A stretch of DNA of 64,000 nucleotides from an uncultured Syntrophaceae bacterium (GTDB taxonomy: Bacteria > Desulfobacterota > Syntrophia > Syntrophales > UBA2210): positions 437 to 64,436 of the forward strand of contig CAYLXS010000001.1 of NCBI GenBank assembly GCA_964387765.1, given 5' to 3'. The notes under the pieces were generated by a model. It was not told the DNA's origin. It made no database searches and worked only from the letters and a program-made list of their open reading frames with translations. This document shows, piece after piece, positions 1 to 57,807 of the stretch (position 1 is the stretch's first letter; each line of letters starts with the position of its first letter). The translations under genes and the position numbers were made by a program.

Positions 1-49
1 TTTGTCCATGGTTACTCTGTGCCCCTCACTCTAACCCGGAAAAGTTCAA

Positions 50-89
50 GGGTTTTGTTGGGTTTCGTGCCTTAACCCAACCTACAACT
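50..89. repeat. REP-like hairpin element, copy A (GGGTTTTGTTGGGTTTCGTGCCTTAACCCAACCTACAACT)
   Basis: An 8-bp stem (GTTGGGTT/AACCCAAC) surrounds a 9-nt loop. Near-identical copies lie at 29858-29897 and 57773-57807. This copy encodes the last codons (..CRLG) and the stop of the 72..3320 ORF. Confidence 0.8.
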
Positions 90-3000
90 TGCCAGGAATT
101 CGGATAAAATAACCTCTCTTTTAGCTGAAGGAAACCGTTGGCCCGGTCTTTTTGCATCAAGGATGTTATATGGAATGCTTTTTTTGAGAATTGCCAAAAC
201 TTTCAGGGGATTACTTTCCTTTTCGATTTTTTTCTTGATATTCTTTGTAGTATTTTTTGGAATCACCCCGTCTTCATATCCCCTTAAAACCAGCCTGATG
301 TATTCCTCGTCGTCATCGGTGAAGCCCTGATACTTTTTGAATTCTTTTGCCTTCAAACGTGTGATAACATAGCGTTCATTGGAAAGCCCGCCACGTCCGC
401 CTGATCCTTTCGGTTCAAAATTTTCGCCTGAAGTGATAAAATGGAACTGTTCTTTGTTGTCTTCCAGCATCGGATAGAACTGTTTTGGTATTTTCTCCCG
501 TTTTGTATCTTTGTCGCATTCCAGGATATCCGCAGCTTCGAAGAAGGTGCATTCTCGGGAACCATTGCCGCCTGACATAAAGAACTTTTTCAATTTGCCT
601 TTTCGGAAGAAGGTAAGCAACTGATCGTTTTCCATATCACATTGTCTGGATGATCGTGCTTTCTTCGGAAGGTTTTTAATCTCTTCAAAAAGCGAGGGTT
701 GATTATCACGAATATCACGAATAAACTTCAGGTATTTCAACTCGGATTGTCCTTCTTCATCATCACCCACATACGTCCTTTTGTCCGCAAGGCGTTGATA
801 CAGAGTGTCTCCGAATAATTCATGGGACGACACGACTTCTTCATCGGTAAGATATTTTGCATCCTCTCCAAGCGTGTCGTGGAAAGCCTGAATCTTGGAT
901 TTGATGTTATCTTCCAAGCCGATATGTCTGTCTGATTCATCCGTGGGGAAAAAGTTAAACACATAAATACTTGTGTGTTTAGTTCCTACACGATTCACAC
1001 GCCCAACCCTTTGAAGCACCTTTGTCGGATTCCAGGGCAGGTCATAATTTACTACGATATTTGAACGGTGCAGGTTGATGCCTTCCGCAAGGATGTCAGT
1101 GCTGATAAGAATCCGCAAATCGCCATTCTGGGTCTTGTGGGTGGGGTCGTAATTTTCTTTGATAATACGCCGCGCATCTATGACTGATTTTTTGCCTTCC
1201 GCGGTTTCTCCACCTTCGCTGGAGTAAAACAATACCTTGTTCGGGAACTGCCTGTTAAGATTATCATAAAGATAATCGCCTGTTTCTTTTGATTCTGTAA
1301 ATATTATAAGTTTCTTGTCTTTCAGCTCATTGTTTGTTTTCAGATTATCAATAAAGGTTTCTATTTTCGGATCCGAATCAACAACCGACCACAGATCGCG
1401 TATTGCTTTCAGTATCTTCAAGTCAGACTTGAGGTCTTCAATTAATTTTGGAGTAAATTCATCGGCGCTATATTTTTCAAGCTTTTCCTGCTCTATGAGC
1501 TGAAGTATTTTTTCTTCGTTGTCTTCATCCAGAAGATCGTAAACATCCACTTTTTTGCTGATAAGAATTGTCCCCTTATTGAACATATCAATGAAATTAA
1601 TATAGGATTCAACAAAGCGATCCAATGTATTGCGAAAGGCATAGAAGCTGCTTTCAAGACGTTTAACGAGAATGACCTTCATAAAGCCACCGACATTTCG
1701 CTGGCTTTGCTTTTCAAATTCAGGAAGTTCCCTTTTTAGGTAGAGTAGCGGTGTGTAACGTGCGTATTTAATTTTTTTCAGCAGTTCTATAGTTTGACCA
1801 AAAACAGCGCTTATATGTTCATCAAACTGGTAAATGAACCGCCTCGGATCTTCAACATCAGGGAAAAATAGGCCCTGTTCATCAATATCCTTATTGAAGT
1901 ATTTTGTAATTTCAGACCGCGTCCTCCGCACCATCGTATATTTCAGGATATTTTCCCTGATTTTTCCGGAACCTTCCTTAATGGCGCTGATGTATTCCGG
2001 GTCTGATTTTTTGATATTTTTGAGTCTGTGCATGAGACTCTTAAAGAATTTTTCTAGATTCGGCACTCCCGGAATTGTTGATTTCTTGGGGATCTGAAAG
2101 AGCTTCAATTGGCTTAAAATATCATCAAAGGTATTGTTCAAGGGTGTCGCGGAAACCAGAATGACTTTTTTGCCGTGGCAGACCTGATGAATCATTTCAA
2201 AGCCCTGGGTATATTCATTTCTGAAACGGTGCGCCTCATCAATGAAGATGTAATCATATCTTTCCGTTCCATCTTTGATGATCTGGTCAAGTTTACCGAG
2301 AGATTCCACCCTTGTTTTCTTGATTCCAAAGTCAAAGAATGTCTCTTCCCAGTAATCCTTGAGTACGGGAGGGCATATAACCAGCTTACCACCAGGCAGC
2401 TGTTGAGCCAGCATGGCGGATATAAATGTTTTTCCCAGACCGACAACATCGGCCAGAAACACTCCGTTGTAAGCATCCAGGATTTTCTTGGCGGAGACGA
2501 CTGCCTGTTTTTGATATTCAAGCTCCATAAAACCTTCAGGCAGGTCCAACTCAATCTCTTCATCAAGATTGATGTCTTCCTTCAGGTATTCGTAGAGCAT
2601 TTTCAGATATAGCTGATAGGGGATGATGGCGTCATTGAGCCAGGTTTTGTTCCGGATAGTTTCGACATATTCCTGTGAGATGTTTACGCCGTCTTTCCAC
2701 AGCGCTTCAAATTGCTTCAGGGCGAATTCAACATCAATCCTGCCTTTTAATTCGACGTTGAATTCCCTGTTTGCGATAAGGCCGCTTTCTGAAAAATTGC
2801 TGGAACCTGTGATTACCCTGCCAAAATCCAACTCCCCCTCTTTGAAACGGCTGACATAGACCTTGGCATGTATGTTTTCACTTGGATAGGCGCGCAGTTC
2901 CATCTTTTTCCCGTTGCCGCCATTGGCCATGTCTTGCTCTTTGTCGGCACAATCGGCAGTCAGAAATTCCAGGAATTTTCTGATGCCTATTTCAGTTTCG

Positions 3001-3320
3001 TAAGAGTCTTCCGATTCATCCATTTCGGATGCCGTCTGTTCGCTGAACATGCGTTTGGTTCTGCTGTGTGATTCAAAATCGAATTCGCCCCCGGATCGTG
3101 TCTCTTCAATAATCTCATAGGTCTTCTGATCTACATTGAGACCAACCAGGATTCTGATTTTGTCAATGGATTCAAAGGATTCGTATAACTGATAGAACCC
3201 GCTGGTGCGAAAATACCCGACCAGAACATCAAAGTATTGCACGTGCTCTAATGTCTTTTTGAACCTGTCAAGCAGTGCGTAACCCGGTTCATTTGTGAAA
3301 AAGGTTGTATCGGTAATCAT
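72..3320 (-). CDS. PLD-family nuclease domain fused to an SNF2-family helicase (1082 aa)
   Basis: The N-terminus has a single HKD-type motif (HAKVYVS...GSSNFSESG). SNF2/SF2 motifs are I LADVVGLGKT, II FIDEAHRFRN, III LVSATPLNN and VI QRVGRVNRVG. The last ~250 aa carry no motif I recognise. Confidence 0.85.
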   Translation of the reverse strand: MITDTTFFTNEPGYALLDRFKKTLEHVQYFDVLVGYFRTSGFYQLYESFESIDKIRILVGLNVDQKTYEIIEETRSGGEFDFESHSRTKRMFSEQTASEMDESEDSYETEIGIRKFLEFLTADCADKEQDMANGGNGKKMELRAYPSENIHAKVYVSRFKEGELDFGRVITGSSNFSESGLIANREFNVELKGRIDVEFALKQFEALWKDGVNISQEYVETIRNKTWLNDAIIPYQLYLKMLYEYLKEDINLDEEIELDLPEGFMELEYQKQAVVSAKKILDAYNGVFLADVVGLGKTFISAMLAQQLPGGKLVICPPVLKDYWEETFFDFGIKKTRVESLGKLDQIIKDGTERYDYIFIDEAHRFRNEYTQGFEMIHQVCHGKKVILVSATPLNNTFDDILSQLKLFQIPKKSTIPGVPNLEKFFKSLMHRLKNIKKSDPEYISAIKEGSGKIRENILKYTMVRRTRSEITKYFNKDIDEQGLFFPDVEDPRRFIYQFDEHISAVFGQTIELLKKIKYARYTPLLYLKRELPEFEKQSQRNVGGFMKVILVKRLESSFYAFRNTLDRFVESYINFIDMFNKGTILISKKVDVYDLLDEDNEEKILQLIEQEKLEKYSADEFTPKLIEDLKSDLKILKAIRDLWSVVDSDPKIETFIDNLKTNNELKDKKLIIFTESKETGDYLYDNLNRQFPNKVLFYSSEGGETAEGKKSVIDARRIIKENYDPTHKTQNGDLRILISTDILAEGINLHRSNIVVNYDLPWNPTKVLQRVGRVNRVGTKHTSIYVFNFFPTDESDRHIGLEDNIKSKIQAFHDTLGEDAKYLTDEEVVSSHELFGDTLYQRLADKRTYVGDDEEGQSELKYLKFIRDIRDNQPSLFEEIKNLPKKARSSRQCDMENDQLLTFFRKGKLKKFFMSGGNGSRECTFFEAADILECDKDTKREKIPKQFYPMLEDNKEQFHFITSGENFEPKGSGGRGGLSNERYVITRLKAKEFKKYQGFTDDDEEYIRLVLRGYEDGVIPKNTTKNIKKKIEKESNPLKVLAILKKSIPYNILDAKRPGQRFPSAKREVILSEFLASCRLG

Positions 3321-3337
3321 TCGTTTTTCCTGTGATG

Positions 3338-3408
3338 AAAACTCCCGTTTCTGTTTTGAAAGAAACGAGGCTTTTGTGATTATCTGCCATCTTTAGAACC
3401 TTTTTGAG
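3338..3408. repeat. Cassette-flanking box plus hairpin, copy 1 (also terminator-like)
   Basis: The 22-nt core TTTTGTGATTATCTGCCATCTT (3372-3393) is identical to 4589-4610. An adjacent 9-bp bulged hairpin (3344-3370) has T/A runs on both sides. It lies just 3' of the HEPN stop and 5' of the SNF2 start. Confidence 0.8.
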
Positions 3409-3429
3409 ATTGTTGAAATCGTAATATAT

Positions 3430-3873
3430 TTATACCAGCTCAGGGTGCTTTTCTTTGAGCCACTTCATGACATCTTTCCTTAATTCTCCGGCAAACTCAA
3501 TCAGTTCGTTTGCATCTTTTTCAGTAACACCCCCGACATAATCGTATTCAACGATATTTCTCTTGCTTCTGCATGTGTCGAGGTATTTGACATCTTCTTC
3601 CCTTTCTTTGCCAAGGATTACAGAAAGTGCCTTTATCGTCCTGTAATGCTGTAGAGTCCTTTCCGGCCTGAACCCTTCAGCATGCAGGGGTATTGTGCAA
3701 AGTTTTAACGCGGCATTATATGCGATACCGAATCGCCAGTCGGGCGAAATATCCCCGGCGGCATCTTCCAGATCTCTATTCACAATCTGGAGCAGATTAT
3801 CTATCTCTTCCCTGCTGGATTTATGCAGACGTAACCAACCGTATTCAACCCATTGCTCCAAGCTCATTTTCAT
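3430..3873 (-). CDS. HEPN-domain protein (toxin partner of the MNT gene)
   Basis: A small helical protein that overlaps the upstream MNT gene by 29 nt. The RSKRNIVEYDY region sits where the HEPN R-x4-6-H/Y signature lies. The MNT-HEPN pairing is the classic arrangement. Confidence 0.7.
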   Translation of the reverse strand: MKMSLEQWVEYGWLRLHKSSREEIDNLLQIVNRDLEDAAGDISPDWRFGIAYNAALKLCTIPLHAEGFRPERTLQHYRTIKALSVILGKEREEDVKYLDTCRSKRNIVEYDYVGGVTEKDANELIEFAGELRKDVMKWLKEKHPELV

Positions 3874-4432
3874 TTCCTATAACGAAAATCTTTGGCTTCT
3901 TAAGTATGCCTGTAATGAAATGATCGCCTTTTTCCCTGCGTTTCATAAATTCTTCATTATTCATGACATGGGGATTAATTTCTCTCCCGATTTTTCCAGA
4001 TAGTTCGGAAAGCAGAGCGGTTACTTCCCGCAATCCGAGGGTTCCGATCACCATAAGATCTATGTCGCTTTGTGTCTTTTCATCATGACGGGCAATCGAA
4101 CCAAAGACAAAAGCATATTCGATATCGGAAGACTTATTCAAGACTTCTTTTATAATATCAACCAGTCCGATGGTTTTTAGTACAATGTTTCGGATTTCGG
4201 GATAGAGCGGATGTTCTTTGTTAGCTTGATAATAAAGGCGGTTCCCGTCCCTGTTTTTCTTGATCAACTCCAGACGATGCAGTTTTTTCAACTCCTGCTG
4301 TACTGTGCCTGTTGTAAATCCTGACCGCCTCTCGATCTCGCGCATGTGCAGCGCATCGTCACGGGTACCGAAGAGTATCCGGAAGATTTCCGCTCTTATC
4401 TTCGATGAAAGTATTTCGGCGAGTATATTCAT
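3845..4432 (-). CDS. Winged-HTH plus minimal nucleotidyltransferase (MNT) antitoxin-type protein
   Basis: N-terminal wHTH (HMREIERRSGFTTGTVQQELKKL) and an NTase motif, FGSIARHDEKTQSDIDLMV (G-S...D-x-D). Confidence 0.85.
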   Translation of the reverse strand: MNILAEILSSKIRAEIFRILFGTRDDALHMREIERRSGFTTGTVQQELKKLHRLELIKKNRDGNRLYYQANKEHPLYPEIRNIVLKTIGLVDIIKEVLNKSSDIEYAFVFGSIARHDEKTQSDIDLMVIGTLGLREVTALLSELSGKIGREINPHVMNNEEFMKRREKGDHFITGILKKPKIFVIGNENELGAMG

Positions 4433-4446
4433 ACTGTATGTCTATA

Positions 4447-4462
4447 CCATACAATTGTATGG
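4447..4462. promoter_or_regulatory. Perfect 16-bp palindrome CCATACAATTGTATGG, candidate operator of the wHTH-MNT operon
   Basis: A perfect inverted repeat ending 14 nt upstream of the MNT ATG (4432). A -10-like TATAGA follows, and there is no Shine-Dalgarno sequence. Confidence 0.5.
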
Positions 4463-4557
4463 TTATTCCAAACAATTTTGAGACTGTGTCTATAGTGCCG
4501 AATCTCTGGTAACCACCTCATCATCTATCTGTCTGGCTTTACCTGGAGCGAACAAAT

Positions 4558-4626
4558 AAAACCCCGTCTCTGTTAAGAGCAACGGGGTTTTTGTGATTAT
4601 CTGCCATCTTCAAGGCCTTTTTTGTG
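4558..4626. repeat. Cassette-flanking box plus hairpin, copy 2 (bidirectional terminator-like)
   Basis: The same 22-nt core lies at 4589-4610. The CCCCGT..ACGGGG hairpin (4562-4587) is flanked by AAAA and TTTTT. It lies just 3' of the 4653..4898 ORF stop. Confidence 0.8.
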
Positions 4627-4652
4627 TTTAAAAAGAAAAGATCATTTGTTGT

Positions 4653-4898
4653 TTAATGTATGGCACCCTTGTTTTTTGTTAAGACTTTTGCATATTCAAC
4701 AAAAATCCGTGGAATGTCAAGGGAAACATGGAGCATTAGAGGTTTCAGAAGCTCTTCCATAGTGACACCGATGGATAGCCCGCCGGGATTCCGGAAGGGG
4801 TGAGAAATGAGTTCGCTATTCAGTTCAAGGATAAAGGTTTGACGCTGTTTCCTCATTGAGATATAGATACCGATTTCAGAACAAATCCATGAGAACAC
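4653..4898 (-). CDS. Hypothetical small protein (GTG start; an internal ATG would give 67 aa)
   Basis: ORF only, with no recognisable motif. It is followed by the same box/hairpin element as the HEPN gene. Confidence 0.3.
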   Translation of the reverse strand: MFSWICSEIGIYISMRKQRQTFILELNSELISHPFRNPGGLSIGVTMEELLKPLMLHVSLDIPRIFVEYAKVLTKNKGAIH

Positions 4899-4979
4899 AA
4901 TTGTAACTTATCGGATTAAGACGCGTATTTTGATTGGCCACCGTGTTGTGGAAAATGCTATGGAAATGTATTTTAACGG

Positions 4980-6386
4980 ATGAAAACACCTGCAAGAGAA
5001 GTGATTAACAGTAATGTATTGCCGGGAAAGAGTATCATCATTTCCGTTATGATGACTTCTTTTTTTACGACATTTATCGGCAGTTCAACAAATCTGGCAT
5101 TACCGCTAATCGGGAAGGAATTCGCGGGGAGCGCCCTTGTCCTGAGCTGGATTGTAACCGGTTATATCCTGGCATCAGCCGTATTCCTGTTGCCCATGGG
5201 AAGAATTGCCGATATTGTTGGGAGAAAAAAGATCTTTCTTCTGGGGACGACAGGTTTTACACTTTTCACGTTTCTGTGCGCGGTTTCGTGGTCGAATGCT
5301 TCGCTCATCCTTTTCCGGGTATTGCAGGGAATAACAGCTTCCATGATATACGCGACGGGAATGGCAATAATATCTTCCGCCTATCCGGCCGGGCAAAGGG
5401 GGAAGGCGATGGGGCTGGCCGTGACGGCAACGTATACCGGCCTTTCACTCGGGCCTGCTCTAGGAGGCTTTATATGCCAGCATCTGGGTTGGAGGAGTAT
5501 TTTTTACTTTACCGCTTTAGTCGGTTTGGCCTCTGTTGTGTTCATTATAACCCGCGTGCGGGATAAATGGCCCGGTCGGCAGGGAGAAAAATTCGATCTC
5601 GCCGGAAGTATGCTGTATATGTTCGGGCTTGCCGCATTTTTGTATGGCATGTCATCAATGTACAGTACACCACTGGCAAAGTACATCTTTATAGCCGGTG
5701 TGATTCTCATGACGGGTTTTATCCTTCTCGAATCAAGGCTCCCCTTCCCTCTCATAAATCTGCGATTGTTTTCCCATAACATTGTCTTTGCTTTTTCCAA
5801 CCTCGCTGCCATGATCAATTACAGCGCGACATTTGCTATCGGGTTTCTCCTTTCTCTTTATCTCCAGGTAATCCGGGGATACAGTCCTCAGACAGCCGGT
5901 TTTGTCCTTCTCGCGCAACCTGTTATCATGGCCCTGTTTTCATCATTCGCCGGTTCGCTTTCAGATAGAATCGAACCTCGTATCGTTGCTTCATGTGGAA
6001 TGGGGCTTAACGCGCTGGGTCTTTTTCTTTTTGCGCTTCTCGGCGCCGCTACACCTGTCTGGATGGTAGCACTGAATCTGGCACTGATCGGTCTCGGTTT
6101 TGCTCTGTTTTCCTCACCCAATACCAACGCGATCATGGGGTCTGTAGATGAACAATTCTATGGGGTTGCCGCGTCAACGGTTTCAACCATGCGTATGATC
6201 GGAATGGCTACGAGCATGACTATTGTGACTCTGCTGATTGCGCTGTTTGTCGGTGACACGGAACTCCATCAAACGGATCCCGTCCTTTTCCTGACCAGCT
6301 TCAGAATCGCCTTTGCAGTCTTTGGTATTCTTTGCGCCGGCGGTGTCTTTGCCTCTCTCGCCAGGGGAAATGTGCGGTCTTCGTGA
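4980..6386 (+). CDS. MFS transporter, DHA2 (14-TM drug:H+ antiporter)-like
   Basis: 468 aa with about 14 hydrophobic segments and an MFS motif-A-like GRIADIVGRKKIFLLG. Confidence 0.85.
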   Translation: MKTPAREVINSNVLPGKSIIISVMMTSFFTTFIGSSTNLALPLIGKEFAGSALVLSWIVTGYILASAVFLLPMGRIADIVGRKKIFLLGTTGFTLFTFLCAVSWSNASLILFRVLQGITASMIYATGMAIISSAYPAGQRGKAMGLAVTATYTGLSLGPALGGFICQHLGWRSIFYFTALVGLASVVFIITRVRDKWPGRQGEKFDLAGSMLYMFGLAAFLYGMSSMYSTPLAKYIFIAGVILMTGFILLESRLPFPLINLRLFSHNIVFAFSNLAAMINYSATFAIGFLLSLYLQVIRGYSPQTAGFVLLAQPVIMALFSSFAGSLSDRIEPRIVASCGMGLNALGLFLFALLGAATPVWMVALNLALIGLGFALFSSPNTNAIMGSVDEQFYGVAASTVSTMRMIGMATSMTIVTLLIALFVGDTELHQTDPVLFLTSFRIAFAVFGILCAGGVFASLARGNVRSS

Positions 6387-6454
6387 AAATCGGGAAACAT
6401 CGTGACCGGTTTTAAAAAGTTTCTCCGAACGATTTCAGCATCTTTATACCCCTG

Positions 6455-6865
6455 TCATTGGGAACGGGGTGGCGGCGGGCGAAACATCCGGTGTTTGCCC
6501 CGCTGCTGGAATCTTTTCTGAAACCGGTCAAATTTCTGTTTCTGGTCGTCGGTGAGAATTTCCCGAATCATTCCAAAGTCGTGCTCTATGATTCCCCGTA
6601 TCTCAGGCTGGCACCTCTGGCTGATCTGGGCCAGTCTCTGGTGCGAGTTCCTGAGGATCTTCCCGATTTCGGTTCGTTGCTCCTCTGTCAGGTCGAGATC
6701 GCGCGAGAGTCTTCCCAGGAATAGTTCCGATCGTGCCTCCTGGCCTCTCTGCACAAAGTGGGAAACACGGTATTTCATATAGGCCTGTGTTCCGAACGAT
6801 CCCGCGAGGATTCCGAGGGCAAACACAAGCAGTACCCCGACAGATACTTTCAGTTTATTATTCAT
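6455..6865 (-). CDS. Periplasmic Spy/CpxP-like (LTxxQ) protein
   Basis: N-terminal TM/signal anchor, LTEEQRTEIGKIL and LTDDQKQKF motifs, and a position last in the ECF sigma operon. Confidence 0.65.
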   Translation of the reverse strand: MNNKLKVSVGVLLVFALGILAGSFGTQAYMKYRVSHFVQRGQEARSELFLGRLSRDLDLTEEQRTEIGKILRNSHQRLAQISQRCQPEIRGIIEHDFGMIREILTDDQKQKFDRFQKRFQQRGKHRMFRPPPPRSQ

Positions 6866-6877
6866 TCTCTTTTCTCC

Positions 6878-7192
6878 TTATAGCCCCCAGATCTGTTCGG
6901 CAGTGCTCTCAATCGGATTGGCCATGAATGTCGCGGTTATTTCGTATTCCGGAGAGTAATCAAGGTTTATTAGTGCCACCATCAGCACTACTATCAAAAG
7001 ACTGGCAACGGGGGCAAAACGCCACACAAACCGGCCAAAAAGCGCGGAGAAGTTTGCCGGGGATGCGGGGGCGCCGAGGCTTCGAATATCGCCCATCACA
7101 CGTGTCTCCCAGAACTCACCTGCATGAACAGTATCATTTTCCCGATACGCCGCGCCGAGTGCTTCTGTGATCTTTGTCGTGTTGTCTTTCAT
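6878..7192 (-). CDS. Putative membrane anti-sigma factor (single TM)
   Basis: A 4-nt start/stop overlap with the upstream ECF sigma gene and one TM helix (FAPVASLLIVVLMVALI). There is no zinc-binding anti-sigma motif. Confidence 0.45.
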   Translation of the reverse strand: MKDNTTKITEALGAAYRENDTVHAGEFWETRVMGDIRSLGAPASPANFSALFGRFVWRFAPVASLLIVVLMVALINLDYSPEYEITATFMANPIESTAEQIWGL

Positions 7193-7803
7193 TGTATCAT
7201 CCCCTCTCCTATCGGTCCCGAAAGGAGTTTCTTAAGTTTTCTCCGGGACCGGAACGACCGGACCTTGACATTGGCTGTGGTCCAGCCTAGCATTTCGGCC
7301 GCTTCTTTTACCGTCAGGCCTTCAAGATAGACCAGTTCCAGTACCATTCTGTCTTCGGCGGACAGTTTTGCCAGGGCCCAGTCAAGTACTTCCCGCGCCT
7401 CTTTCCGTGAACCGTGCTCGCCGAATGCACGGTCCGATGTATCCGATATGACGTTTTCGAGCCACTCCTGGTGTTTTTCCGTCAGAGAGCTCATGGGAAC
7501 CTCTTTCGACCGGTAGCGCTGCCTCCAGAAATCATAACAGGTCCGTACCGCGATAGAAGACAGCCAGTGCCTGAAGTTGTCTTCTCCCCTGAAAGTCGCC
7601 AGCGACTGATATGTCTGTATGAAGGCGTTGTGCGCTGTTTCTTCCACCTGATCATAGGGCACGTGTCTGCTCACAATTCCCATTACATGGTCCTTATATC
7701 GTGTCAGTATCTCCGCGAACGCGTCTGCGTCTCCGTCAATAATCCGTTGGATGATCTCGCGATCGCTGGGCTTGCTGGAAGTATTATGCATCGATTCACA
7801 CAA
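7189..7803 (-). CDS. ECF-type RNA polymerase sigma-70 factor
   Basis: Region 2 (VEETAHNAFIQTY..FRHWL) and a region 4 HTH (LEGLTVKEAAEMLGWTTANVKVRSFRSRRKL). Confidence 0.9.
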   Translation of the reverse strand: MCESMHNTSSKPSDREIIQRIIDGDADAFAEILTRYKDHVMGIVSRHVPYDQVEETAHNAFIQTYQSLATFRGEDNFRHWLSSIAVRTCYDFWRQRYRSKEVPMSSLTEKHQEWLENVISDTSDRAFGEHGSRKEAREVLDWALAKLSAEDRMVLELVYLEGLTVKEAAEMLGWTTANVKVRSFRSRRKLKKLLSGPIGEGMIQ

Positions 7804-7980
7804 TCAGGTTTGTTCAGTCTGCTGTCATAGTAAACGAAAATGGGTTCAATTTGCAATGCATAATCACCGGCACTGGCTCGGGGGTCGTCTGCACCTTCCG
7901 GTATACCAGTAAAGCGGGAATCGGAAGGGGCCAAGGAGGGAAAGCATCACCTATCCGTTCCCGCTTTTATTGGAATAATC

Positions 7981-8514
7981 TTACCTTCGGGGGCCGTCGC
8001 CGGGCAATCTGCCGGCAAACGACTTGCCATAACCTCGCTGTGATTCCATCCGGTCAGATCGTTCGGCCGTACGCTCATCGAGCAGTTTTGCCTGCTCAGG
8101 GGTAAGAACCGCTTTTATCTCGGTTATCATTTTTGTCCGCGAGATCAGCATGTCCTCTCGCACCGAAGACAACTTTTTATAGGCCTTGCGAACGCCCTGC
8201 TCGTTAACCTTGTCGGCCTGGAGGGCCTTCCTGAGGTTGTCACGATCCTTTATGAGGTCTCCTCTGGCCTTTACCCTGTCAATCTGATGGGTTTCCATAA
8301 TCTTGATGACCTGGTCCCTTTGAGAATCTGAAAGATTCAGGTCCATCACCGCTCTCAGGCCCGGTCCACCCGGCCCCGATCCCGTCAATCCCTGTTCGGC
8401 GCAATACCCTTCGCTACTTCTCCCGTGCCCTCTGGCTATTGCCACCGATGAAACGGCAAATACAACTGCCAGAACAACTGCCATCACCACTATGCTTTTT
8501 CTTGTTGATTTCAT
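7981..8514 (-). CDS. Periplasmic Spy/CpxP-family chaperone-like protein
   Basis: A signal peptide followed by LSDSQRDQV and LTPEQAKLL LTxxQ-type motifs. Confidence 0.7.
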   Translation of the reverse strand: MKSTRKSIVVMAVVLAVVFAVSSVAIARGHGRSSEGYCAEQGLTGSGPGGPGLRAVMDLNLSDSQRDQVIKIMETHQIDRVKARGDLIKDRDNLRKALQADKVNEQGVRKAYKKLSSVREDMLISRTKMITEIKAVLTPEQAKLLDERTAERSDRMESQRGYGKSFAGRLPGDGPRR

Positions 8515-8759
8515 TGATTACCTCCATCTTGTTTTTTATTGTGCCTGTGAAATGCTTTCCATTGCTGTGTTAGTCGCATGTTATTTCGAAAAGGTTACAA
8601 AGAAAATGCCTTGAACTAATTTCGATAGGTTATATAGTAGTATTCTTTCACACATTTCCGGGTCGTAAAACTTTTTTGTAACTACTTGTGGAATTGAAAC
8701 GACTATACTAAAATACAGTAAAGCACAGATTAAAAAATGCGGCTATTTAAGGATGGGGA

Positions 8760-10220
8760 ATGGCACATCGGGGTCTGAATACATTTCTACTGATCATTGT
8801 TGCAGTTTCTTTTATATCGTCATGCAGTCCTTTCAGACCCCCCGTTAGAACATCACCGGCCGGCGAAGTGCCCCTGACCTTCTCTCTCTACCCAACCGGA
8901 CCCGAGCGGTCGGAGCGGTGGTGGGAAGAATTCGATGACGAGGATTTGAACTCCCTGATCGAGGAGGCCTTGTCGGGCAGTTTCACTCTCAAAGAGGCCT
9001 GGGCCCGCCTGAGACAGGCGAAGGCCCTGGCAGTTCAGTCGGGAGTGGATCTCTATCCCGACCTCTCAGTCACGTCCGGGTCTTCTTTCAAACGCCAACG
9101 GTCAGAAAACAGTTCCGGCAGCCGGTCAACCGCATCGACCGAGAGCTATTCCCTGGGACTGAGCAGCAGTTACGAACTGGACCTCTGGGGACGAATACGC
9201 TCCGAACAGGAGGCAAAGATTCTCGATGCGACCGCCACCCGCGAGGACATCAATACGGCAGCCATGACGCTCACCGCAGAGGTTACGAGAAACTGGATCA
9301 ATATCATTTCGCAGAGAAGACAAAAAAAGATCCTGAATGAGCAATTCGCCATCAATATAACCTATCTGGAATTGATAGAACTTCGATTCCGTAAAGGGAT
9401 GGTCTCCGCTCTCGATGTCTATCAGCAGCGGCAGGTTGTCGAGCAGGTCAGGGCGCAACTACCCCTCGTCGAAGAGCAGGAACAGCTCCTGATGCACAAA
9501 CTGGCCCTGCTCCTCGGGAAGCCGCCCCGGACGTCGCTCACGATCAGCAGAAACACGCTCCCTGAATCTTCCGAAATCCCGAAAACGGGTCTCCCCGCGG
9601 ATCTTCTCGCGGCCAGGCCGGATGTGCGCTCGGCGGGTTTTAAACTGCGTTCAGCGGACTGGCAGGTCTCTTCCGCGCGGGCAAATCGTCTTCCCTCCAT
9701 CAGCCTGACCGCTTCGGCGACGTACCAGGCACCCGAAATTAACCTGCTCTTTCATACCTGGCTGATAAATCTCGCTGCAAACCTGACGGCCCCCCTCATT
9801 GACGGAGGACGTCGGGCGGCGGAGGTAGATCGTGCACGAGCGGTGGTGGATGAAAATCTGTCCGCTTACCGGAGGACGGTCTATACGGCGATCAAAGAGG
9901 TTGAAGATGCGCTGGTCACCGAGGAGAAAAAACGCCGGCATATCAAGGCCCTCAAGGCGGAGATTACCGCCGCCGGCCGGGCCCTCGATGAGGCCCGAGA
10001 TCGGTATCTAAAGGGAATAGACAATTATCTGCCTGTCCTGACACAGATCCTCAAGGTCCAGAGCCTTGACGTTGATCTGATCAAACGGCAGGCAGAACTG
10101 CTGATCGCACGTGTGGGCCTCTACCGTTCACTGGGAGGAACCTGGACGGACAAGCTTACCCCCGGCGGCGGTATGAAAGCAATAGAACCAACAAAAACCT
10201 CCAGCAATGATAAAGGGTGA
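8760..10220 (+). CDS. RND efflux outer-membrane factor lipoprotein (NodT family)
   Basis: Lipobox (..FISSC), 486 aa with two OEP-type repeats, and first position in a three-gene efflux operon. Confidence 0.9.
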   Translation: MAHRGLNTFLLIIVAVSFISSCSPFRPPVRTSPAGEVPLTFSLYPTGPERSERWWEEFDDEDLNSLIEEALSGSFTLKEAWARLRQAKALAVQSGVDLYPDLSVTSGSSFKRQRSENSSGSRSTASTESYSLGLSSSYELDLWGRIRSEQEAKILDATATREDINTAAMTLTAEVTRNWINIISQRRQKKILNEQFAINITYLELIELRFRKGMVSALDVYQQRQVVEQVRAQLPLVEEQEQLLMHKLALLLGKPPRTSLTISRNTLPESSEIPKTGLPADLLAARPDVRSAGFKLRSADWQVSSARANRLPSISLTASATYQAPEINLLFHTWLINLAANLTAPLIDGGRRAAEVDRARAVVDENLSAYRRTVYTAIKEVEDALVTEEKKRRHIKALKAEITAAGRALDEARDRYLKGIDNYLPVLTQILKVQSLDVDLIKRQAELLIARVGLYRSLGGTWTDKLTPGGGMKAIEPTKTSSNDKG

Positions 10221-10227
10221 AACTTAC

Positions 10228-11493
10228 ATGGAAAGACAGGAAAATACGAACACATCACCAGCGGATCAGACGGAACCAACCGGCACGAGCCGAAAGAGCC
10301 TGAAGATCATACTACCGTTTCTGATTCTCATTATCGCGATTGCCGTCGCGTTCTATGTCGGTAGCACCGCCCCCAAGGCACTTAGAACCCCTCCCGTGCG
10401 GGAGGCGCCTCTGGTGGAGACACTGCCGGCTCAGCACACTTCGGAACGGATAATAATCCCGGCGATGGGAAGCATCATCCCGGCCCGGGAGATCACGCTC
10501 AAATCACAGGTTTCGGGAGATATCTTGAAGATAAACCCCCGATTCACGGAAGGCGGACATCTAAAAAAGGGCGATGAGCTCCTGAAGATAGATGATCAGG
10601 ACTACCGCCTGGCCGTGGCCGAGCAGCACAGTCAGGTTGTCGGCGCCGAGTACGCTTTGAAACTGGAAATGGGACGTCAGGATGTCGCGCAGCGAGAGTG
10701 GGAACTGTTGGGCGGCGGCGACTCCTCGAAGGCTCCCGATTCCGAACTGGCCCTCCGCAAACCCCATCTTGAAAAGGCGCAGGCGGATGTCGCGTCAGCA
10801 CATGCCGCGATGAAGCGGGCCGAGCTGGATCTCGCCCGCACTACCGTTCGCGCTCCCTTTAACTGTATTGTGCGCACAAAAAATGTGGACCTGGGTTCCC
10901 ACGTCTCTTCCCAGGACCAGCTAGCAGAACTGGTGGGAACGGATGAATACCGGGTGCGGGCTTCCGTACCGCTCGACCGCCTCAAATGGATCTCCATCCC
11001 CCGTGGAAGGGATGATTATGGATCTAAGGCGCGTATCATCTACGGGAACGGGACCGGATATGAACGGAAGGGCAGCGTCGTCAAGTTGCTGGCAGACCTC
11101 GAAGAGGGGGGAAGAATGGCCCGTATCATAATCGCGGTCAAAGATCCGCTCGACTTAAAATCCCCGGAAAGCACCCGGCCGCCTCTTCTGATAAGCGAAT
11201 ATGTCCGCGTCGCGATCGAGGGCCCAGAGCTGAAAGGGATCATCGCCCTGCCCCGCTCCGCCCTGCGTGATGGTAAAAATATCTGGATCGCGGGCAAAGA
11301 TGACAGGCTCGATATACGGAGTGTAAATATCGTCTGGCGAGGAGAGACTACCGTACTGGTACAGGATGGAGTGGCGGACGGCGATCGGATTATTATTACC
11401 GATCTTGCAACCCCGATACAGGGAATACATGTCATGGTGAACAAACCGGCGAGCACAACCGCGGTGACAACACCCGGGCCTGAGAAACAGTAA
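10228..11493 (+). CDS. RND efflux periplasmic adaptor (MFP/HlyD family)
   Basis: A TM anchor plus coiled-coil and barrel segments, located between the OMF and the pump. The ATG at 10228 follows AAGGGTGA and is preferred over the overlapping 10207 start. Confidence 0.85.
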   Translation: MERQENTNTSPADQTEPTGTSRKSLKIILPFLILIIAIAVAFYVGSTAPKALRTPPVREAPLVETLPAQHTSERIIIPAMGSIIPAREITLKSQVSGDILKINPRFTEGGHLKKGDELLKIDDQDYRLAVAEQHSQVVGAEYALKLEMGRQDVAQREWELLGGGDSSKAPDSELALRKPHLEKAQADVASAHAAMKRAELDLARTTVRAPFNCIVRTKNVDLGSHVSSQDQLAELVGTDEYRVRASVPLDRLKWISIPRGRDDYGSKARIIYGNGTGYERKGSVVKLLADLEEGGRMARIIIAVKDPLDLKSPESTRPPLLISEYVRVAIEGPELKGIIALPRSALRDGKNIWIAGKDDRLDIRSVNIVWRGETTVLVQDGVADGDRIIITDLATPIQGIHVMVNKPASTTAVTTPGPEKQ

Positions 11494-11520
11494 TCATTAG
11501 CGAAGGAACCGATACTGACG

Positions 11521-14500
11521 ATGATGGAAAAGAACAGCGAAAAACGAGGTCCTCTCGCATGGATGGCGGGCAATTCCGTTGCCGCCAACCTGCTGATGAT
11601 CGTCCTGCTCGTGGGAGGCCTTATCTGGGCCCTTCAGATCAAGCAGGAGGTGTTCCCCGATTTTGACCCGGACCATGTAAACATCACCGTTGCCTATCCC
11701 GGGGCGAGTCCTGAAGAGGTTGAGCAGGCGATTATTCTTGCCGTTGAGGAGGCCGTTTCCGGCCTGGAGGGTATTAGAGAGATTACTTCCAGCGCGCGAG
11801 AAGGCTCAGGCTTTGTACAGGTAGAGATGATCGAGGGCTATGATAATCAGAAACTGGCACGGGATATTGAAAACGAGGTGGATCGCATCAGTTCCTTTCC
11901 TGAGGAAGCGGAAGATCCGCGAGTGGAGAGCACCCCTCATCGTCGGCAGGTCATCTCGCTGGTTTTGTACGGTGATCAGGATGAGCGAATACTCCGGGAA
12001 AAGGTTGAAGAGATCCGGGACAAACTCCTCCAGAACCCGGAGATTACCCAGGTGGACCTGTCCGGTATTCGTGACCTGGAGATCAGCATCGAGGTATCCC
12101 AGGATAAGCTGCGGGCCTATAACCTGACGCTCGATGATGTCGCGACAAAGGTACGGCAAGCATCCGTTGATCTCCCCGGAGGCGGCATCAAGACTGCCGG
12201 GGGCGAGATCCTGGTCCGCATGACGGAGCGGCGTGATTTCGGGGAACAATTCGCCCGCATCCCCATTATTTCCTCCAGCGACGGCACCCGCGTGCTCCTT
12301 GAAGATATCGCCACGGTGATCGATGGATTTGAGGATACGGATACTTACGCAACATACAACGGTAAGCCCGCCATGATGATCGACGTCTACCGGGTGGGCG
12401 ATCAAACCCCCCTGTCGGTGGGGGATGCCGTTATGCCATACGTGGAGGAATGGCGTCAGACACTGCCGGAGGGGATCAGTATCGATATACTGAGGGACAG
12501 TTCGGACGTGTACCGCCAGCGCCTGACCATGCTTCTCCATAACGGCTATATGGGTCTCGCCCTCGTGCTGATACTGCTCGGACTGTTTCTGGAGGCACGC
12601 CTGGCCTTCTGGGTGACCATGGGGATTCCAATATCCTTTCTCGGCTCGATCCTTTTTTTGCCGCATTTCGGAGTCAGCATCAACATGATGTCGATGTTCG
12701 CCTTTATCGTGGCGCTGGGAATCGTCGTGGACGACGCCATCGTGGTGGGAGAGAACATCTATACTTTCCGCGAAAAGGGTTATTCCTTCCGGAGGGCGGC
12801 CATTGAGGGAGTGCGCGAGGTGGCCATGCCAGTCACGTTCAGCATACTCACCAACATCGTGACCTTTACGCCTCTCCTCTTTGTACCAGGGATTCCCGGA
12901 AAAATCTTCAAGTCGATCCCGATTGTTGTGATCATCGTTCTAGCCATTTCCCTGGTGGAGAGTCTCTTCATACTTCCGGCCCACCTGGGACGCCGGAGCG
13001 ATAAGCCCGACCATGCGATCATGGCATGGTTGCACATGAGGCAGCAACGCTTCAGTAACCGGTTCAGCCGGCTTGTCAGGGAACGGTACGGACCCTTTCT
13101 GGACTGGGCCCTTACCTGGCGGTACCTGACGGTCGCCATCGGACTGGCGATCCTGATCATCACCCTTGTCTATGTGAACAGCGGGCGGCTGGGAATCACA
13201 CTGATGGAGCGGATCGAGTCGGACTTCGCCCAGGTGGAAGTCGCACTCCCCTACGGATCGGCAATTGAGAAGACAGAGGCGGTACAGACAACCCTTATAC
13301 AGGCGGCACGGAAGATTGCAGACGAAAACGGCGGGAAAACTCTGGTCAAGGGTATCTATTCTCGAATCGGGGCCCCGGTCAATGGAACGGCAGGCAGCCA
13401 TACCTGCCGATTGCGCGTATATCTCACCCCGGCCAATGAGCGCCCCATGGAGACGGGTGATTTTGTGAAGGTCTGGCGCCGCGAGGTAGGCGCGATTGCC
13501 GGTCTGGAAAGCCTCATTTTCAAGTCTGATGCCGGGGGACCCGGTTCACGGGCCTCCATGTCCATTGAACTGAGCCACCGGGATCTGGCGGTGCTTGAGG
13601 CCGCTGGTGCTGAGTTAGCCGAAGACTTGAGGTATTTCCCCAAAGTTAAGGATATTAATGATGGTTTCGCTCCTGGAAAGCAGCAGATCGACTTCATGAT
13701 TCGCCCGGAAGGCAGGGCCCTCGGTCTGACAGCTCGTGATGTTGCCGGCCAGGTCCGCAACTCCTTTTACGGAAGCATGGTGCTGCGTCAGCAACGAGGA
13801 CGCAACGAGGTAACCGTCATGGTGCGCCTCCCCGAAAATGAGCGCACGTCGGAATACACCCTCGAAGAACTGATGCTCAGGACGCCGACCGGCCAGGAGG
13901 TCCCGCTGAAGGAAGCAGTCACCATGAAGCGGGGACGTGCCTACACGGAGATAGACCGCAGAGATGGACGGCGGGTCATCACGGTGACAGCGAATATAAA
14001 TCCCCCCAGCGAGGCAAGCAGTGTTCTGAACACCCTCAAGGCGGAAACTCTTCCGGAGCTGAAACGGAAGTATGCCGGTCTGAACTATGGGTTTGAGGGA
14101 CGTCAGGCGGATCTTACGGACAGCATGAATAGCCTCTTTATGGGACTGGTGCTGGCCATGCTGGTTGTATACGCCCTGCTTGCTATCCCGTTTCGCAGTT
14201 ATATCCAGCCGCTGATTATCATGGTGAGCATCCCCTTCGGAATCGTGGGAGCGATCTTCGGTCATCTTCTCATGGGCTACAGCCTCAGCGTGATGAGCCT
14301 GTTCGGGATTGTGGCCCTCACTGGTGTGGTGGTCAACGATTCGCTGGTGTTGATCGATTTTGCCAACCGACAGCGGGCAAAGGGCAAAAATCCGCACGAT
14401 GCTATTCATACGGCGGCAATCAACCGCTTCCGCCCGATCCTCCTGACATCGCTCACGACCTTTGGAGGACTGACCCCTATCATGCTCGAAACCGCTAGAC

Positions 14501-29857: not shown

Positions 29858-29897
29858 GGGTTTTGTCGGGTTTCGTACCTCAACCCAACCTACAACT
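29858..29897. repeat. REP-like hairpin element, copy B
   Basis: GGGTTTTGTCGGGTTTCGTACCTCAACCCAACCTACAACT, with one stem mismatch. It fills the nadC-birA spacer and supplies the last two nadC codons and the TAG stop. Confidence 0.8.
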
Positions 29898-57772: not shown

Positions 57773-57807
57773 TTGTTGGGTTTCGTGCCTCAACCCAACC
57801 TACATCT
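57773..57807. repeat. REP-like hairpin element, copy C
   Basis: TTGTTGGGTTTCGTGCCTCAACCCAACCTACATCT, between the convergent antiporter and nnr genes. Confidence 0.8.

Follow-up and report, generated by a model that had tools for sequence, protein, structure and literature searches.

Does the long open reading frame (ORF) at the left end of the DNA analysed here encode a solitary protein, or does it belong to a larger system? The sequence in question is a stretch of 64,000 nucleotides from contig CAYLXS010000001.1 of an uncultured Syntrophaceae bacterium (hereafter, the window), and the ORF (72..3320, minus strand) codes for a protein of 1082 amino acids in which a nuclease domain of the PLD type is joined to an SNF2 helicase. 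The initial annotation, made from the sequence of the window, regarded this gene as stand-alone, with no methyltransferase in view, and as a possible one-gene nucleic-acid-targeting defence or repair factor. The ORF itself, its single HKD motif and its complete SNF2 core are confirmed by the ORF call together with Pfam and motif searches. With a probability of roughly 0.72, however, the helicase-nuclease is the motor-nuclease subunit of a two-gene, ATP-dependent restriction-modification (R-M)-like defence module, the other member of which is a methyltransferase of 1187 amino acids.

The apparent isolation of the gene is an artefact, since the methyltransferase gene is cut off by the left edge of the window. 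Positions 9..1 read ATGGACAAA on the minus strand, i.e. the first three codons (ATG GAC AAA) of an N6-adenine DNA methyltransferase, which appear in reverse complement as bases 1-9 (tttgtccat). In an exact-sequence look-up, at least 23 metagenome contigs proved to encode the same helicase protein, and on one of them, L001, positions 1-13320 correspond to window 13320..1 at 99.96% identity, while the contig extends ~9.9 kb further to the left. There the complete methyltransferase gene (L001:13312-16875) lies on the same strand as the helicase gene, starting 62 nt past its stop codon. The 62-nt spacer between the two genes (10..71, minus strand) contains a GAGGGG Shine-Dalgarno-like site, which is conserved in an orthologous locus with 90% identity (L088).

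Comparative analysis indicates that this arrangement is not peculiar to the Syntrophaceae contig. With each species represented by one genome, a scan provided 80 loci, in which a tblastn search detected a methyltransferase homologue on the same strand in all 26 full-length orthologues (39-57% helicase identity) that are followed by at least 1 kb of downstream DNA; the methyltransferase usually starts 8-20 nt past the helicase gene, the distance reaching ~1.1 kb in a few loci. All-against-all clustering of the ORFs from 46 loci left two conserved genes only, those of the helicase (46/46) and the methyltransferase (42/46), and in the four loci without the latter the contig is short or truncated. 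The two genes lie next to each other on one strand, in either order and frequently with an overlap, and helicase relatives at ~30% identity are likewise paired with a methyltransferase in either order. The pair is found in Bacteroidota, Acidobacteriota, Clostridia, Alpha-, Gamma- and Deltaproteobacteria, bacteria of the candidate phyla radiation and a Woesearchaeote. On a RefSeq plasmid of Parabacteroides distasonis, for instance, a "SNF2-related protein" is followed by an "N-6 DNA methylase" and then by a TIR protein. More than 8000 near-full-length homologues of the helicase (60-90% identity) are spread over unrelated phyla, and public records name them just "helicase-related" or "SNF2-related". 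Helicase and methyltransferase are strictly coupled in the genome and spread horizontally, and the pairing of the two genes on the same strand in 26 of 26 and 42 of 46 loci supports their assignment to one module. The idea of a one-gene factor is not supported by this neighbourhood analysis; nor are the homologues found in housekeeping contexts, defence genes and the methyltransferase adjoining them.

SauUSI, a Type IV enzyme, combines a PLD domain, an SF2 helicase and a C-terminal reader domain. The protein studied here shares this layout, and no methyltransferase ORF is visible inside the window, so that a stand-alone factor of the SauUSI-like Type IV or Hna-like kind, either in defence or in repair and with the tail acting as a sensor, might be envisaged. 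Such a possibility is very improbable in view of the start codon at window positions 7-9, the full methyltransferase gene on the identical contigs and its recurrence next to the helicase, and the tail is unlike any solved reader domain.

The methyltransferase yields Pfam matches to Eco57I (145 bits), TaqI_C (73 bits), N6_Mtase and MmeI_Mtase (27.1 bits), as well as a weak one to MmeI_hel (E 0.06). Its AdoMet motif I (DPAIGSGAF) precedes the catalytic motif IV (NPPY) and is followed further on by the TaqI_C recognition domain, an order characteristic of the gamma class, and the solved N6-methyladenine (m6A) methyltransferases CamA and M.BseCI are homologues of its C-terminal half. The protein qualifies as a gamma-class N6-adenine methyltransferase of the Eco57I/MmeI/PglX/DrmMI type with a target-recognition domain of its own. 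Bifunctional Type IIG/IIL enzymes of the MmeI kind, which unite nuclease and methylase in a single chain, are characterised by an N-terminal PD-(D/E)xK nuclease in which D, E and K are fully conserved (D70, E80 and K82 in MmeI). In the N-terminal domain of the methyltransferase the pattern reads D68-x10-H79-L-K81, with His79 in place of the Glu, whereas the canonical D-x10-E-x-K is present in 5-6 of 20 orthologues. In the region corresponding to L001:13312-13800 it is intact in some orthologues (DVLIVEVK, Bacteroidota) and degenerate in others (HLK, KVH, YLQ). The variation of this pattern suggests that the nuclease is being lost in the course of methyltransferase evolution.

Alternatively, the methyltransferase may be a self-sufficient Type IIG/IIL enzyme similar to MmeI or Cj0031, in which case the HKD-SNF2 protein would be an auxiliary or back-up effector that degrades DNA processively after the first cut. 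The best PADLOC model for the methyltransferase is indeed "REase_MTase_IIG" (1e-286), matches to DrmMI and PglX being weaker; the nuclease pattern is kept in the orthologues mentioned above, such partners have been called Cj0031-like Type II R-M enzymes (PMC9881135), and auxiliary nucleases around BREX-like cores have been described (PMC12839542). Nevertheless, this explanation seems unlikely. The PADLOC label derives from predicted REBASE classes, the Glu position is occupied by His79 in the present protein and the pattern is lost in most orthologues, MmeI homologues without the nuclease motif did not cleave (PMC2731913), and the coupling of the two genes (26/26 and 42/46 loci) is too strict for an optional accessory. 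As a separate observation, the methyltransferase of the 90% identical orthologue (L088:11332-14747) was called as a protein of 941 amino acids accompanied by a separate ORF of 186 amino acids, which could reflect either a frameshift or a rearranged recognition domain; programmed inversions have been reported in methyltransferase genes of this sort (PMC9881135).

The other gene of the pair is preceded by a ribosome-binding site (AGGAAA) located 8 nt 5' of the ATG at 3320. Residues 1-212 of its product (2685..3320, minus strand) form a nuclease domain with the PLD fold, as judged from Pfam and the secondary structure of an AlphaFold2 model; the domain is acidic (isoelectric point, pI, 4.7). The PLDc_2 match extends over residues 139-208, and some homologues also match RE_NgoFVII (PF09565), a PLD family of restriction enzymes. 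The motif of the HKD/PLD superfamily is HxK(x)4D(x)6G(S/T)xN, and in PLD nucleases such as Nuc and BfiI one active site is built from two HKD motifs, a single-motif protein therefore having to dimerise. Motif search and inspection of invariant columns revealed one such motif, HAKVYVSRFKEGELDFGRVITGSSN (2796..2870, minus strand; H151, K153 and G172-S-S-N175). Since H151, K153, G172, S173, S174 and N175, along with the SNF2 ATPase motifs, are invariant in alignments of 30 and 48 homologues, the residues of both nuclease and motor are of the catalytic type; the concern that the HKD residues might turn out non-catalytic on alignment was not borne out, H, K and GSSN being retained in all 48 sequences.

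The SNF2 ATPase core spans residues 266-825 (846..2525, minus strand) and was delimited by Pfam, a profile search against PDB, Foldseek and hhalign. Motif search located Walker A GLGKT (residues 294-298, 2427-2441), DEAH (361-364, 2229-2240) and motif VI QRVGRVNR (770-777, 990-1013), all on the minus strand. With motifs I, II and VI present and both Pfam domains above their cut-offs (SNF2-rel_dom, 48.7 bits versus 24.9; Helicase_C, 63.3 bits versus 23.5), the protein is a member of the SNF2 family, and the search of the family profile against PDB sequences returned SNF2 remodellers on top, namely Fft3, a Rad54-like enzyme of Sulfolobus, Chd1, ISWI and RapA.

The full-length AlphaFold2 model (pLDDT, the predicted score of the local distance difference test, 82.5; predicted template modelling score, pTM, 0.75) comes closest in structure to Escherichia coli RapA (E 4e-17), with Mot1, CSB and PBAF next in order. 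This resemblance, along with a weak NCBIfam RapA match, brings up the question of whether the protein is a housekeeping SNF2 enzyme, either of the RapA type, which recycles RNA polymerase, or a translocase of DNA repair, and is located in a defence island by chance. RapA is distinguished by a tandem Tudor N-terminus, by specific C-terminal domains and by a score of at least 576 bits with NCBIfam PRK04914. The helicase-nuclease scores 45.6 bits against this cut-off of 576, hhalign to E. coli RapA covers lobe 2 of the ATPase only and leaves the RapA C-terminus unmatched, no RapA fold is found in the tail, and RapA possesses no HKD domain; membership in the RapA family was accordingly rejected. 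In addition, the gene belongs to a patchy, horizontally spread family paired with a methyltransferase and resides in a low-G+C island among defence neighbours, and a single copy in conserved synteny with core genes was not seen. A housekeeping role is consequently the least probable of all explanations, its likelihood being close to negligible.

Residues 826-1082 (75..845, minus strand) make up a C-terminal tail that was defined by conservation, modelling and profile searches. It is conserved across the helicase family, its motifs including LPKKAR, FFRKGKLKKF, FTDDDEEY, IPKNTTK and REVILSEYL, of which the most conserved stretches (LPKKAR, FFRKGKLKKF) are rich in Lys and Arg; the core of the tail (860-1082) is basic, with a pI of 9.4. 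When residues 786-1082 were modelled separately, confidence was high from residue ~860 onwards, most 10-residue blocks having a pLDDT above 90, and the model shows an alpha+beta fold with a four-stranded sheet (888-924), which is joined by the final strand (1068-1077), plus a helical bundle. The ~250 residues following motif VI had been described in the initial annotation as unplaceable, and so they remained: no Pfam match was obtained even at E<=10, and Foldseek of the tail model returned no fold match in either PDB (best E 0.35, template modelling (TM) score <0.2) or BFVD (best E 9e-3, TM 0.13). In comparison with solved structures of PDB, the tail alone displays neither a RapA fold nor similarity to a reader domain. 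RapA-like C-terminal domains, which were described for related helicases (PMC12839542), could not be detected by hhalign, and the same applies to a RapA-like inactive-REase domain. A phmmer search of 1.84 billion representative proteins produced 478 matches to the tail. Among the best 150 of these, the match reaches or nears the C-terminus, full-length proteins mostly have ~1050-1130 amino acids, shorter ones resemble gene fragments, and no other architecture was seen. Because the matches are few, C-terminal and mostly found in proteins of this size, the tail is considered specific to the helicase-nuclease family.

Taken as one module, the two proteins would operate as follows. The methyltransferase would read a short asymmetric site and methylate it in host DNA, while on unmethylated incoming DNA it would recruit or license the SNF2 motor, leading to ATP-driven translocation along double-stranded DNA. 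As each polypeptide carries one HKD motif and a PLD active site consists of two, cutting would require the meeting of two HKD domains, either in a constitutive dimer or by means of converging motors. The basic C-terminal tail would be the best candidate for docking to the methyltransferase and/or gripping DNA. This mechanism has a precedent, since the same division of labour was proposed by Morgan et al. (2009; PMC2731913) for MmeI homologues without the PD-ExK motif, which have helicase genes at their flanks and do not cleave alone: the methylase provides specificity, whereas the helicase and nuclease partners are responsible for cutting. A more far-reaching version, to which we are inclined to give somewhat less than an even chance, would be that the pair constitutes a self-contained, minimal class of ATP-dependent R-M, the smallest member of the "SNF2 + PglX-like methylase" group of DISARM, BREX-3, Hma and ARMADA, in which a decayed MmeI-type nuclease was replaced by a motor-coupled PLD nuclease and in which the basic tail of ~220 residues is a domain of novel structure, serving either to dock the motor on the methyltransferase or to clamp DNA.

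Several observations weigh against the joint action of the two proteins as outlined above. The link between them is one of genomic coupling only. The PLDc_2 score is barely above the Pfam cut-off (28.0 versus 27 bits), and both in this protein and in the family consensus Arg158 stands where the textbook motif HxK(x)4D has its Asp. The N-terminal domain of the methyltransferase gave no MmeI match when its profile was compared with PDB sequences, and the argument for nuclease decay, which relies on the pattern only, is weak because the domain is not alignable to solved MmeI; moreover, those orthologous methyltransferases that keep a canonical D...ExK may be able to cut unaided. The role ascribed to the tail is a guess, as neither its fold nor its sequence has a relative beyond the family. 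Finally, a terminator-like hairpin with a T-run (3344-3369, minus strand) stops just 24 nt short of the helicase ATG, thereby leaving no room for a promoter after it, and the same is true of the 90% identical orthologue. A promoter scan detected nothing above the shuffled background and none after the hairpin, which does not account for expression of the helicase gene; the hairpin is possibly an attenuator that limits the expression of the restriction gene.

A search of the full-text literature found no experimental study of this HKD-SNF2 and methyltransferase pair; the architecture was noted, but neither named nor tested, in searchable papers. The HKD and SNF2 fusion itself is already known: the best PADLOC match of the helicase (2e-49) is the "HKD+Snf2" model C3a139, which goes back to a paper surveying type III CRISPR neighbourhoods (PMC6546367), and HKD-Swi2/Snf2 helicases were reported as the effectors of Type-2 BREX-related (BR), or Hma, systems, for which a phage-defence role is reported and which are interpreted as R-M-like, the HKD-SNF2 protein restricting DNA and the methyltransferase protecting that of the host (PMC12839542). 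As in Type-2 BR, an N-terminal HKD endoDNase takes the place of the Tudor domain, is followed by Swi2/Snf2 and is accompanied by an N6-adenine methyltransferase. However, BR systems are defined by the DUF499 AAA+ ATPase HmaC, and those of Type 2 also have a DUF3780 gene (98% of taxa). Neither DUF499 nor DUF3780 was found among the genes within 10 kb, all of which are accounted for, or in the 46 loci, which share no third conserved gene, and the PADLOC HmaA match is limited to helicase residues 539-783, hence membership in this group was rejected.

Class 1 DISARM also has an SNF2 helicase (DrmD), a PLD nuclease (DrmC) and a large Eco57I-type N6-adenine methyltransferase (DrmMI) in one locus, and hidden Markov model comparisons show partial similarity of the helicase to DrmD (1e-40) and of the methyltransferase to DrmMI (3.6e-38). 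Nonetheless, PLD and SNF2 constitute one polypeptide in the present case, the DISARM core proteins DrmA (a helicase) and DrmB (DUF1998) are absent from L001 and from the 46 loci, and the NCBIfam DrmD score is 140 bits as opposed to the cut-off of 610; the locus was therefore not assigned to DISARM. The curated models of DrmD, RapA and "phospholipase D anti-phage" proteins are all far below their cut-offs for the helicase. In ARMADA, an experimentally validated system, the core is a pair of an SNF2 helicase and a PglX-like methyltransferase (ArmA/ArmB; PMC12458937), and in both this system and YeeA/YeeB/YeeC (PMC2731913) the methyltransferase is responsible for specificity and protection, while an SF2/SNF2 helicase and a nuclease cut. 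Yet YeeB is a DEAD-type helicase that is accompanied by a separate GIY-YIG protein, YeeC, and ARMADA has two further helicases, whereas only the HKD-SNF2 fusion and the methyltransferase are present here.

ZorD of the Zorya system (PDB 8QY7) is another fusion of an SNF2 motor to a nuclease and acts as a DNA-degrading effector, its lobe 2 being similar to that of the present helicase (E 1e-15), but it carries an Mrr-like nuclease, has the ZorABC membrane complex as its partner and works with no methyltransferase. Cleavage by the Type III enzyme EcoP15I and the Type ISP enzyme LlaGI depends on ATP-driven long-range communication. They resemble the present pair in the coupling of an SF2 motor and a nuclease to a site-specific m6A methyltransferase, and differ from it in having PD-(D/E)xK or Mrr nucleases and Rad25- or Type I-like motors, in the case of ISP in one chain, instead of SNF2 with an N-terminal HKD domain. 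The locus is best described as a putative two-gene form of the "SNF2 helicase + PglX-like methylase" core, which turns up repeatedly, and as a member of no named system. If the two proteins do form one module, it would represent the simplest natural version of this core, other versions of which are part of DISARM class 1, BREX type 3, Hma/BR and ARMADA. Consisting of two proteins and including its own nuclease, it would lend itself to the study of how a methyltransferase passes unmodified DNA to an SNF2 motor. Owing to the generic names of the helicases and the PADLOC "Type IIG" label of the partner, the pair is unrecognised as a unit in annotation. What remains of interest is a very widespread, presumably minimal R-M-like pair and a C-terminal domain which is predicted to fold with confidence and has no detectable relatives.

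The genomic surroundings are those of a defence island. The G+C content of the island stretch is 0.34-0.45 compared with 0.50-0.58 in the flanks; within the window it changes from ~0.39-0.45 (1-5000) to 0.47-0.61 (5000-12000), and the right-hand edge of the island accordingly lies near 5000, where it adjoins an MFS transporter gene (4980..6386). To the left of the window, directly after the partner methyltransferase, a protein of 455 amino acids and a Dam-like methyltransferase of 285 amino acids (L001:16898-19119) match PD-Lambda-5 A and B (1e-44 and 1e-109, respectively), the G+C content of this stretch being as low as 0.34. The two genes make up another R-M-like system, distinct from the first; its functional link to the helicase was dismissed, as no homologue is found near the helicase in the 80 other loci. 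Further left, a ParB-methyltransferase fusion and an FRG protein are encoded (L001:20094-23249). It is the low G+C content together with the PD-Lambda-5-like pair, the ParB-methyltransferase and the FRG protein that identifies the stretch as a defence island. The initial idea of a nucleic-acid-targeting defence factor is supported, whereas the one-gene part of it is not. Among metagenome contigs of different sample origin, identity is ~99-100% as far as 19.4-21.5 kb, beyond which they diverge, the ends being represented by ParB-methyltransferase and FRG in L001, by Lactamase_B and adenylate kinase, or by DUF2238 (L003 from 21505; L005 from 19401), hence the population is variable with regard to the far end of the island. 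The neighbours of an orthologue with 82% identity include BglII-type restriction-modification genes, a ThsB-TIR gene and AAA_15.

On the other side of the helicase gene, the initial annotation had recognised a HEPN/MNT module. The MNT gene (3845..4432, minus strand), which encodes a winged helix-turn-helix and a Polbeta nucleotidyltransferase domain, is well supported (Polbeta 43 bits; PADLOC PDC-M05A, 1e-62). For the HEPN-like gene (3430..3873, minus strand) there is a match to PADLOC PDC-M05B (9e-44), its Pfam match being below the threshold (15.5 bits versus 22, E 0.019). Type VII toxin-antitoxin systems of the MNT-HEPN kind consist of an MNT nucleotidyltransferase and a HEPN RNase with an Rx4-6H motif; no clear motif of this form was found in the HEPN-like gene. 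The module, although present, is unrelated to the helicase. A 56-nt leader element (AAGATGGCAGATAATCACAAAA followed by the hairpin and T-run) stands as a direct repeat on either side of the MNT-HEPN pair: copy B (3350..3405, minus strand) keeps the downstream flank and the ribosome-binding site, and copy A (4567..4622, minus strand), which is 80% identical to it, keeps the ancestral upstream flank. The orthologue with 90% identity (L088/L089), by comparison, has a single copy of the leader directly 5' of the helicase ATG and no MNT-HEPN genes (L088:7879-8000). Since the leader is single there and duplicated around the pair in the window, the MNT-HEPN genes represent a later insertion of ~1.2 kb into the helicase leader and no part of a conserved module. 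It looks like a cassette insertion with target duplication; no integrase was seen among those genes of L001 that have a Pfam annotation. In the two copies of the leader the stems of the hairpin are different, with pairing retained. According to tblastn, an MNT or HEPN homologue occurs near the helicase in none of the 80 other loci, and, with the insertion also missing from the orthologous locus, a functional link of the helicase to MNT-HEPN was discarded. In the 82% identical orthologue, a DUF2281 and PIN pair (VapBC-like; L087:11128-11784) is located between the helicase and methyltransferase genes, and hence two independent insertions of toxin-antitoxin-like pairs into the helicase-methyltransferase operon appear to have taken place.

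The REP element (50..89, plus strand) that was noted on the opposite side of the helicase gene is a genuine, REP-like repeated palindrome with the core GTTGGGTTTCGTGCCTTAACCCAAC at 57-81. This 25-mer is present in three copies in the window (57-81, 29865-29889 and 57775-57799, all on the plus strand) versus none expected, the consensus GTTGGGTTTCGTGCC(T/C)(T/C)AACCCAAC being embedded in a conserved unit of ~40 nt. As the methyltransferase start codon lies inside the window, the site thought to bound the helicase gene is in fact the helicase-methyltransferase spacer. The first copy overlaps this spacer and supplies the last codons and the stop codon of the helicase gene, while the repeat as such belongs to the host genome and not to the helicase-methyltransferase system.

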